Positions 14,871 through 16,526 of a DNA stretch of 64,000 bases are shown here, in pieces. The DNA lies in assembly GCA_949299565.1 (NCBI GenBank), contig OX437086.1, forward strand, positions 880,099-944,098, given 5' to 3'. The position numbers and the translations under genes were made by a program. Each line of letters begins with the position of its first letter. The first letter of the stretch is position 1. The notes below the pieces were generated by a model, which was not told where the DNA came from, did not search any database, and saw only the letters and a list, made by a program, of their open reading frames with translations. This DNA is from an uncultured Bacillota bacterium (GTDB taxonomy: Bacteria; Bacillota_I; Bacilli_A; RFN20; CAG-826).

Positions 14871-16526
14871 TTAAAGAATATCTCTAATCGTTTCAATATA
14901 TGGTGTCGGGGGATTATTCGGGTCATATTCATTATAGGATGCTCCAGCCGTAACGTTCCCAAAAATGTCACCCCAGCCGTTCTCATAATTCAAATATTCT
15001 TGAAAATCATTGTAGTGATTATAGGTGTAGAAAACATAGCGATCAGAAAGCTCAGTGATCGGAGTGCCGTCTGAATAATAACGTGAATAGACGATTCGCG
15101 CTGCACCGCGAGTAATCGTATCGCCATCATTATATAGGGTCGGCGGATAACGATTAGGCGCACACCAAGTACCGGTTGTTCCGATATCAATTTCGTAATA
15201 ATAAAGATCGCCACCGCAACCGGAAATGCGCGGCAATTCAGGCTCATAGCGATAATCGCTAGTGTCGCCGCTAAATTCATTGTTGTTAACGCGCAAATAT
15301 TCGCCCCACTCGGATTCATAGGGCTGCGTTCCCGTTCTTCTTTCATAATTTACGGGCACATCGCCAAAGGCATAAATATAGGCCGCTACCTCTTCTAAAG
15401 TGATATAGGCTCCGCCGCGATAAACTTCAAAAGCTAATTGACCATAAGCATCATAAACATAATATGTGTTGCCGTCTCTTGAGAAGTCGCCTTGATTATT
15501 ATGAACAAGGTAGTCGCCCTCTCTTGGACGATACGAAGAAATCGTCGGAGCTTCATCCGGAACTTCTAACTCCCCCGACATCAAATAACATTCGCTGCGA
15601 TATTGTGCATCGAGATAACTGTTAGCGGGCGTATAATTCGCATAAAATTCTCTTTCGCTGATTGAAATATAAGGGTTCCCACCAATTATCGTGATATACA
15701 AAGCGTTGCTGAGTAACCCGTCATCTCCCTCAAAATAAAGTTCGCTCGTTCCTTCGCTTAAGCCGTTTACAAATAAATCACCGACTCCCGACTCTCCGAT
15801 TGAAATAACCTCGGGATTTTCAATATGAGCGGTTATTTGATTAGGAGAAATGAAGCGAACAGATAATCTTTCGTAATCGTCTACCTCAATCGTCGTGTTG
15901 GCGACATCGATTAAGAAATCGTAGACATTAATTGTGATTTCATTCGAAGAATAATCTTCATAATGAGCGATGATTCGCGCGACGCCATAACTTTCAGCAG
16001 TAATCTCCGAACCATTGATGGAAATGACATCATCGCCTTCTAGGATTTCATAATTTACTTCATCGACATAAAAAGTTTGGCTCATCCGGGCTTTAAGCTC
16101 TGCTGTTTGATTGACTGCCAATTGATAAGCACTCGCGCTGAGAACAAGGCTTTCGACGTTGATATCTTGTTGACCGACATTTATCACAATCGAGTCAGAA
16201 AAATTGGCGGCTTGCGCGCGAATGGTTGTCGAACCATTTTTGACAGCCGTAATTAATCCCTGCGCAGAAACGATGGCAATTTCGGGATTTTCGCTAAAAA
16301 ATGTCGTTTCTGCAGCAATATTGCGTATATCAAGATTTAATTGATAGGTATCGCCGACCTCTAATTGCAAAGGACCTTCATCGAGAATTTTAAAGATTCT
16401 CTCTTGCGAAATGGAGGACGTTGTAGAAGAGGAACTAACACTACTTCCAACTTCACTGCATGAAACGGTTACAAAAACTAATGACAACGAAAAACATAAA
16501 TAAAGAAACTTTTGAAATTTCTTCAT
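14871..16526 (-). CDS. Lipoprotein with two Big_2-like Ig domains and a C-terminal barnase-like (microbial RNase N1/T1/Sa-type) domain
   Basis: Lipobox VTVSC; two segments resembling bacterial Ig-like domain 2; C-terminal segments EVAAYIYAFGDVPVNY, NNEF..ELP, ARIVYSRYYSDG and YTYNHYNDFQEY align by eye with barnase (VADYLQTYHKLPDNY, NREGKLP, RILYSSDW, KTTDHYQTFTKI). Confidence 0.75.
   Translation of the reverse strand: MKKFQKFLYLCFSLSLVFVTVSCSEVGSSVSSSSTTSSISQERIFKILDEGPLQLEVGDTYQLNLDIRNIAAETTFFSENPEIAIVSAQGLITAVKNGSTTIRAQAANFSDSIVINVGQQDINVESLVLSASAYQLAVNQTAELKARMSQTFYVDEVNYEILEGDDVISINGSEITAESYGVARIIAHYEDYSSNEITINVYDFLIDVANTTIEVDDYERLSVRFISPNQITAHIENPEVISIGESGVGDLFVNGLSEGTSELYFEGDDGLLSNALYITIIGGNPYISISEREFYANYTPANSYLDAQYRSECYLMSGELEVPDEAPTISSYRPREGDYLVHNNQGDFSRDGNTYYVYDAYGQLAFEVYRGGAYITLEEVAAYIYAFGDVPVNYERRTGTQPYESEWGEYLRVNNNEFSGDTSDYRYEPELPRISGCGGDLYYYEIDIGTTGTWCAPNRYPPTLYNDGDTITRGAARIVYSRYYSDGTPITELSDRYVFYTYNHYNDFQEYLNYENGWGDIFGNVTAGASYNEYDPNNPPTPYIETIRDIL

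Follow-up and report, generated by a model that had tools for sequence, protein, structure and literature searches.

A barnase-family ribonuclease module at the C-terminus of a predicted surface lipoprotein from an uncultured gut Firmicute

Introduction

Barnase from Bacillus amyloliquefaciens and binase from B. pumilus are secreted, guanyl-preferring ribonucleases (RNases) of the N1/T1/barnase family (PF00545). RNases with the barnase fold are also common as toxin domains in polymorphic toxin systems, and barnase and binase are themselves cytotoxic. Here, we describe a gene on a 64-kb stretch of DNA from an uncultured Bacillota bacterium (assembly GCA_949299565.1, contig OX437086.1, positions 880,099 to 944,098), referred to as the window, whose product is predicted to be a surface lipoprotein that ends in an enlarged RNase module of the barnase family. 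An earlier note, made by reading the letters of this DNA, had proposed a lipobox, two Big_2-like domains and a barnase-type C-terminus for the same protein.

Nucleases carried by surface lipoproteins are known from the mycoplasmas, genome-reduced and wall-less or wall-poor relatives of the Firmicutes, where they are linked to nucleotide salvage (PMC11729948, PMC12115388, PMC3585158). A literature search for a surface-anchored barnase-like RNase found nothing specific.

A C-terminal module of the barnase family

The gene is an intact open reading frame (ORF) of 551 amino acids (aa) and a stop codon, and an identical protein, with the same neighbours, is present on two independent ENA metagenome contigs. 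Residues 285-551 form a 267-aa module that is conserved over its full length in relatives. The gene and the parts of the module, with insertions placed by profile alignment to barnase, are as follows.

14871-16526, minus strand: complete coding sequence, lipoprotein with a C-terminal barnase-type RNase module (read as an ORF)
15417-15674, minus strand: residues 285-370 of the module, an N-terminal extension specific to this family and made up of two helices and a small beta-meander
14991-15416, minus strand: residues 371-512, catalytic core homologous to barnase, whose residues 1-110 it matches in the alignment
15120-15173, minus strand: insertion of 18 residues (452-469) that barnase lacks, lying between the strands carrying the catalytic Glu and Arg
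15048-15083, minus strand: insertion of 12 residues (482-493) that barnase lacks, where the module varies most
14874-14990, minus strand: residues 513-551, a C-terminal extension specific to this family that contains the conserved motif NYxxGWGxxFGN

Fold, profile homology and catalytic residues all place the module in the barnase/N1-T1 superfamily, as a member that fails Pfam's own threshold, and its assignment as a barnase-family domain is regarded as close to certain. Comparison of the two family alignments by hhalign gave 96 % probability, with E-values of 5.6e-9 (local) and 9.6e-10 (global) over 104-105 aligned columns, and paired module residues 87-228 (371-512 of the full-length protein) with barnase residues 1-110, the entire enzyme. 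The barnase side of this comparison consisted of 117 genuine PF00545 proteins gathered with a barnase query; the barnase and barstar seeds were used only to retrieve database sequences (96-99 % identity, with the expected Pfam annotations). Against one barnase sequence, hhalign returned 1.2 % probability and aligned helix 1 alone, so that the barnase family alignment was needed to reveal the homology.

Searches with single sequences gave weaker signals. The full protein scored 17.0 bits (E 0.0086) against PF00545 (Ribonuclease), which has a gathering cutoff of 24 bits, over profile positions 43-96 of 98 only, and the isolated C-terminus scored lower still (11.5-14.1 bits). The same weak match recurred in 28 of 29 sampled relatives, with a best E-value of 3.8e-4. 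BLAST produced a colinear alignment with barnase at 23 % identity (E 0.01), which counts as a lead only. A phmmer search of the whole protein against the PDB matched Ig-like S-layer domains and not the RNase part.

From 121 sequences, AlphaFold2 gave a confident model of the module (mean predicted local distance difference test score, pLDDT, 89.7; predicted template modelling score, pTM, 0.91). It has the alpha+beta fold of PF00545, an antiparallel beta-sheet against which the N-terminal helix or helices pack, and its elements place the catalytic residues as in barnase. The observation of the earlier note is partly confirmed, and its reading of the C-terminus as barnase-type is supported by the family alignments and the model. 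The two checks proposed there differed in outcome: structure prediction spoke in favour, and the PF00545 comparison was sub-threshold for the single sequence and significant when family profiles were compared.

Catalytic residues

Profile alignment assigns the active-site residues to the codons below, and pairs Tyr505 with barnase Tyr103.

15243-15245, minus strand: Glu428, equivalent to barnase Glu60 of the guanine-recognition loop (YEPELP versus REGKLP)
15192-15194, minus strand: Glu445 (in YYYEIDI), equivalent to barnase Glu73, the general base
15108-15110, minus strand: Arg473, equivalent to barnase Arg83, transition state
15096-15098, minus strand: Arg477, equivalent to barnase Arg87, transition state
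15015-15017, minus strand: His504, equivalent to barnase His102, the general acid

Conservation was counted in 119 cluster representatives that cover the core and reach down to ~40 % identity. Glu445, Arg473, Arg477 and Tyr505 are each kept in all 119, His504 in 118 (the flanking motif NHY is invariant), and Glu428 in 113. In the model, Glu445 lies within the long strand 157-167, Arg477 within strand 191-200, and His504 in the turn joining strands 214-218 and 223-227 (module numbering). A rough alignment in the earlier note had put an Ala at the general-base position; the careful alignment it called for corrects this to Glu445, and matches His504, Arg473 and Arg477 to their barnase counterparts as well. 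In the window protein, the residue aligned with barnase Lys27, where helix 2 begins, is Arg397 (module position 113), and a Lys found at module position 114 in 83 of the 119 representatives is replaced by Thr.

Because the conservation of catalytic residues is so strict, the sequence predicts activity rather than a decayed binding domain, and the module is quite likely to be catalytically active. Retention of the Glu428 loop makes a preference for guanine probable. A disulfide between Cys437 and Cys455 was considered as a safety mechanism and discarded, as cysteines occupy these positions in only 53 and 70 of the representatives and some relatives keep one alone.

Protein architecture

Upstream of the module, the gene encodes the elements of a lipoprotein with an Ig-like stalk.

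16532-16537, minus strand: Shine-Dalgarno sequence GAGGTG, 5 nt 5' of the ATG (read directly)
16458-16526, minus strand: signal peptide and lipobox, residues 1-23, ending VTVSC, with predicted lipidation of Cys23 (read directly)
16389-16457, minus strand: Ser/Thr-rich flexible linker, residues 24-46 (read directly; homologues have low-complexity linkers in the same place)
16176-16388, minus strand: Ig-like domain 1 (Big_2 or Big-like), residues 47-117 (Pfam and repeat profile)
15918-16151, minus strand: Ig-like domain 2, residues 126-203 (Ig-repeat profile of a phage homologue)
15675-15917, minus strand: segment of residues 204-284, possibly a third beta-rich spacer domain (weak similarity to Ig-like domain 1)

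The ribosome-binding site is a good one. The first 23 residues, MKKFQKFLYLCFSLSLVFVTVSC, comprise a basic n-region, a hydrophobic h-region and a lipobox Cys at position 23, within the first ~35 residues, and predict lipidation. The lipobox of the earlier note is therefore present. Its two Big_2-like domains are also recovered, by different routes: the first matches PF22359 (E 2.5e-10) and PF02368 (E 3.9e-8), in addition to the repeat profile (independent E-value, i-E, 7.6e-9), and the second is detected by the Ig-repeat profile only. This profile, made from the tandem Ig repeats of the phage homologue described below, gave an i-E of 2.9e-16 for domain 2, with a BLAST match to the repeats at E 2e-9; the Pfam scan of residues 126-203 alone returned no match. 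Residues 204-284 were likewise without a match in the Pfam scan, and their similarity to domain 1 is weak (E 0.03).

Distribution and variation of the family

Barnase is among the best-studied enzymes, yet this branch of its family, with more than 2,200 database proteins (~57-65 % identity among the matches listed) in 295 clusters at 50 % identity, carries no Pfam annotation on the module, and its sole name in any source is "hypothetical protein". The branch escapes Pfam and NCBIfam. In a scan of one genome per species, the module was found in at least 464 genomes. All 80 of the genomes retrieved are uncultured gut metagenome-assembled genomes from human, chicken or ruminant samples, labelled as Bacilli, "Mollicutes", Ca. 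Onthovivens, Ca. Alloenteromonas, Ca. Scatosoma, Eubacteriales or Clostridia.

Across hundreds of species the module retains ~60 % identity with an invariant core, and a lipobox-type N-terminus is found by pattern match in 206 of 225 complete relatives. The spacer between anchor and module is far more variable, ranging from 0 to ~700 aa (median 150) and consisting of low-complexity linkers, Ig-like domains or both. An extra C-terminal tail of 20-33 aa follows the module in 149 of the 225; it has aromatic-rich motifs, such as ..IEVAFIYFDKKYY..CA or ..YYVPKNEFAA, and a final Ala in 105 of the 149. Candidate roles for the tail are those of a sorting signal, propeptide or structural strand. The window protein has no tail and ends at 14874.

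The family is essentially chromosomal. A plasmid search did not find the module, and viral carriage is rare, with 2 matches in 2.9 million viral contigs, both from IMG/VR, and one GenBank phage. The latter is the Anaeroplasmataceae phage NatCom_34063 (Ca. Heliusvirales, from human faeces; PV036447.1, 7630-9888), which encodes a 752-aa homologue of shared architecture: a lipobox (FLLVSC), four to five Ig-like repeats and an RNase module with 56.7 % identity over 99 % of its length. The phage gene sits in a block of tail genes, where it directly follows the gene of an 837-aa subtilase and shortly precedes the tape-measure gene; it resembles a host-type cassette for a surface enzyme, carried here by a phage. 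The paper describing the Heliusvirales does not mention the RNase.

Neighbouring genes and the search for barstar

Neighbours were counted at 80 homologous loci in a 12-kb neighbourhood (±6 kb); ranges give the counts from BLAST clusters and from phmmer. Five kinds of nucleic-acid-handling protein recur.

Large co-oriented upstream lipoprotein with OB-fold nucleic-acid-binding repeats (PF01336): 19-25 of 80 loci
SurE nucleotidase: 20-24 of 80 loci
DHH/DHHA1 (NrnA-type) phosphoesterase: 19-25 of 80 loci
Exo III-type nuclease: 9-11 of 80 loci
Thymidine kinase: 7-11 of 80 loci

At least one of the five is present at 39 of the 80 loci, spread over 7-8 of 36 sequence clusters, and their frequency exceeds the chance expectation for single-copy genes in a neighbourhood of this size. 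In many species the OB-fold lipoprotein (median ~940 aa, with several PF01336 repeats) is encoded directly 5' of the RNase gene and in the same orientation, as at locus L028 (1637-5317), and the SurE and DHH/DHHA1 genes often lie downstream on the opposite strand. Together with the RNase, these three proteins may form a locus for capture and degradation of nucleic acids at the cell surface.

No barstar gene was detected in the window or close to the 80 homologues. Among the 348 ORFs of the window, an HMM (hidden Markov model) of 78 PF01337 sequences gave a best E-value of 0.32 and a single-sequence search was negative, in agreement with the earlier note, which had seen none. The 1544 ORFs within ±6 kb of the 80 homologues gave no barstar either (HMM best E 3.9; phmmer and BLAST negative), and no small downstream ORF that might encode an immunity protein recurs in the 80 loci. 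In the window, the RNase gene is followed after a 2-bp gap, with no recognisable terminator, by a gene for a fusion of GrpB and GNAT domains, as the earlier note had it. This protein was considered as a functional partner or immunity protein and rejected; it is linked to the RNase gene in only 1 of the 80 loci, and the linkage is for this reason taken to be incidental. Scans for promoter and terminator consensus sequences around the gene did not rise above chance, and Rfam found three tRNAs in the window and no riboswitch or other known RNA element upstream of the gene.

The RNase gene stands within a run of large predicted surface or lipoprotein genes (6835-19679), and a second region of the window differs in composition. 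The features concerned are the following.

6835-9138: 767-aa protein with an InlB B-repeat domain
9191-10657: 488-aa protein, no Pfam match
10347-12161, plus strand: lipoprotein
12158-13909: 583-aa BspA-type leucine-rich repeat (LRR) lipoprotein
16704-19679: 991-aa Ser-rich lipoprotein, divergently transcribed, no Pfam match
26578-28440: Schlafen-group-3-type helicase protein (PF09848, E 2e-102)
29769-31112: AAA_21 or AbiEii-like ATPase

The listed start of the ORF at 10347-12161 is probably too far upstream: an internal Met at about residue 107 opens a typical lipoprotein signal, MQKKILLSLLAVLSLAGC, and the part before it overlaps the ORF at 9191-10657. The GC content falls to 0.29-0.33 between 24000 and 32000, compared with ~0.40-0.44 elsewhere, and this region is probably a horizontally acquired defence island.

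Proposed function

We favour, with moderate confidence, a surface lipoprotein RNase that scavenges extracellular RNA. The protein would be exported by the Sec pathway, lipidated on Cys23 and displayed on the cell surface, an exposure that is itself inferred, with the Ser/Thr linker and Ig-like domains as a stalk holding the 267-aa enzymatic head off the membrane. By analogy with barnase, the head would cleave extracellular single-stranded RNA, probably after guanosine, by acid-base catalysis: Glu445 would act as base and His504 as acid, and the transition state would be stabilised by Arg473, Arg477 and the nearby basic Arg397. The products would carry 2',3'-cyclic and then 3'-phosphate ends, and the resulting oligonucleotides and nucleotides would be taken up and salvaged by the bacterium. 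Nucleotide scavenging appears the likeliest main role because the protein is predicted to be tethered at the surface, because relatives have neighbouring genes of the salvage type, and because of how the hosts live, and we hold the case for it to be evenly balanced. Reduced genomes and multiple auxotrophies are described for related uncultured gut lineages (PMC12306168), and the lipoprotein nucleases of mycoplasmas serve nucleotide scavenging (PMC11729948, PMC12115388).

Several observations weigh against this interpretation. On the enzymatic side, the single window sequence stays under the PF00545 gathering cutoff (17 versus 24 bits), a Foldseek search of the PDB with the module model found nothing significant (RNase Sa ranked 28th, E 5.9), and PDB sequences searched with a plain HMM of the family alignment gave zero matches; the last two probably failed because only about half of the module is barnase core. 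The equivalent of barnase Lys27 is, judging from the alignment, not cleanly conserved, and the active site might be covered or changed by the terminal extensions or by the two insertions. On the side of function, the neighbour association may partly reflect inherited synteny, the nucleotide-salvage neighbours present at about half of the 80 loci are absent from the 64-kb window, and the window encodes a CTP synthase. The weakness of the single-sequence tests (Pfam E 0.0086, hhalign 1.2 %, no significant Foldseek match) could also be taken to mean that the resemblance to barnase is due to chance or convergence and that the module has an unrelated fold, which is scarcely credible. It is very unlikely that the module is a catalytically dead barnase fold that only binds RNA or another ligand, in the manner of an adhesin or receptor. 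Heavy embellishment (267 aa where barnase has 110, and insertions at two places close to the strands of the active site), the sub-threshold Pfam score and the variable Lys27 equivalent agree with such a loss, but catalytic residues normally disappear from dead domains, and here the Glu, both Arg and the His persist in 118-119 of 119 representatives and NHY is invariant.

The earlier note had left open a secreted nuclease or a toxin-like domain. We prefer the nuclease; an antagonistic toxin, whose head is released or delivered against competing bacteria or host cells while an immunity protein is encoded elsewhere, is unlikely. Such a role would suit an intact active site in a fold common among polymorphic toxins and known for the cytotoxicity of binase and barnase, and the homologue next to a subtilase in a gut phage indicates that the gene can move. 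However, Pfam scans of the window protein and 29 relatives detected no trafficking domain (LXG, RHS, CDI, WXG or similar), with only Ig-like domains and linkers upstream of the module, and the predicted lipid anchor argues for retention on the producer. The 80 loci offer neither a recurrent small downstream ORF nor a detected barstar, and none was detected in the window; the ~60 % identity and invariant core across hundreds of species are not the cassette-like polymorphism typical of toxins; and mobile copies amount to none on plasmids and the few viral ones noted above (2 in 2.9 million contigs plus one phage). A surface RNase that remodels or defends, by acting on RNA of the biofilm matrix or mucus or on host- or phage-derived RNA signals, shares all the structural evidence for an RNA scavenger, and the gene lies among surface-protein genes (BspA-type LRR, InlB B-repeat, Ig-like) typical of loci for host or matrix interaction. 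We consider this quite improbable, as nothing speaks for it specifically and the recurrent neighbours elsewhere process nucleotides rather than mediate adhesion or biofilm formation.

A broader and rather doubtful extension of the scavenging proposal is that the family represents an enlarged form of barnase that is independent of barstar. The conserved N- and C-terminal extensions, for which no fold is known, would then serve as a safeguard or regulator within the protein itself, perhaps by keeping it from folding before export or by controlling access to the active site, and the RNase, the co-oriented OB-fold lipoprotein, SurE and the NrnA-type enzymes would constitute a system for harvesting extracellular RNA in genome-reduced gut Firmicutes, occasionally mobilised by the phages of these hosts.

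An RNA-scavenging lipoprotein would provide a concrete, testable function for a widespread surface protein of never-cultured gut bacteria and would aid annotation in hundreds of species. It would also indicate extracellular RNA as a nutrient source, which could help in the design of culture media. A modest mechanistic question is how a potentially lethal RNase is produced safely with no barstar gene detected nearby, and the 267-aa architecture may be of interest to protein engineers who use the barnase-barstar pair.

Comparison with known systems

The mycoplasma membrane-nuclease lipoproteins (MnuA and the SNase-like MAG_5040) work in a similar manner and are not homologous to the window protein. 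They depend on Mg2+, have Exo_endo_phos or staphylococcal-nuclease folds and act on DNA as well as RNA, whereas the window protein is predicted from its sequence to have a metal-independent fold of the barnase type. The toxin domains of the BECR (Barnase/EndoU/colicin-E5/RelE) group resemble it in placing a distantly related RNase fold at the C-terminus of a larger exported protein. Unlike these polymorphic toxins, the window protein has no trafficking domain, adjacent immunity gene or cassette polymorphism, and the closest profile of its module is classical PF00545 with the classical catalytic residues.

Within the N1/T1/barnase family, RNase Sa of Streptomyces aureofaciens and the fungal RNases T1 and F1 are more distant from the window protein than barnase is; they lack the barnase-type N-terminal helices, which the window protein keeps (module helix 93-103 corresponds to barnase helix 1). 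Canonical barnases occur in Bacillus or Paenibacillus, and several of them appear, judged only by equal lengths of the longest contig, to share contigs with barstar homologues, in contrast to the window family, which is found in uncultured anaerobic gut Firmicutes with no barstar detected in the window or near the 80 homologues. Barnase and binase are free, secreted 12-kDa enzymes, whereas the window protein is predicted to be lipid-anchored behind Ig-like spacers. Barnase has 110 aa and the catalytic unit of the window protein 267 aa, the difference arising from an 86-aa N-terminal extension, which has no known fold, a 39-aa C-terminal extension, and the insertions of 18 and 12 residues. The family thus differs in four respects from every characterised member: no barstar was detected nearby, it is predicted to be attached by a lipid anchor, it is raised on an Ig-like stalk, and its size has been doubled by conserved extensions.
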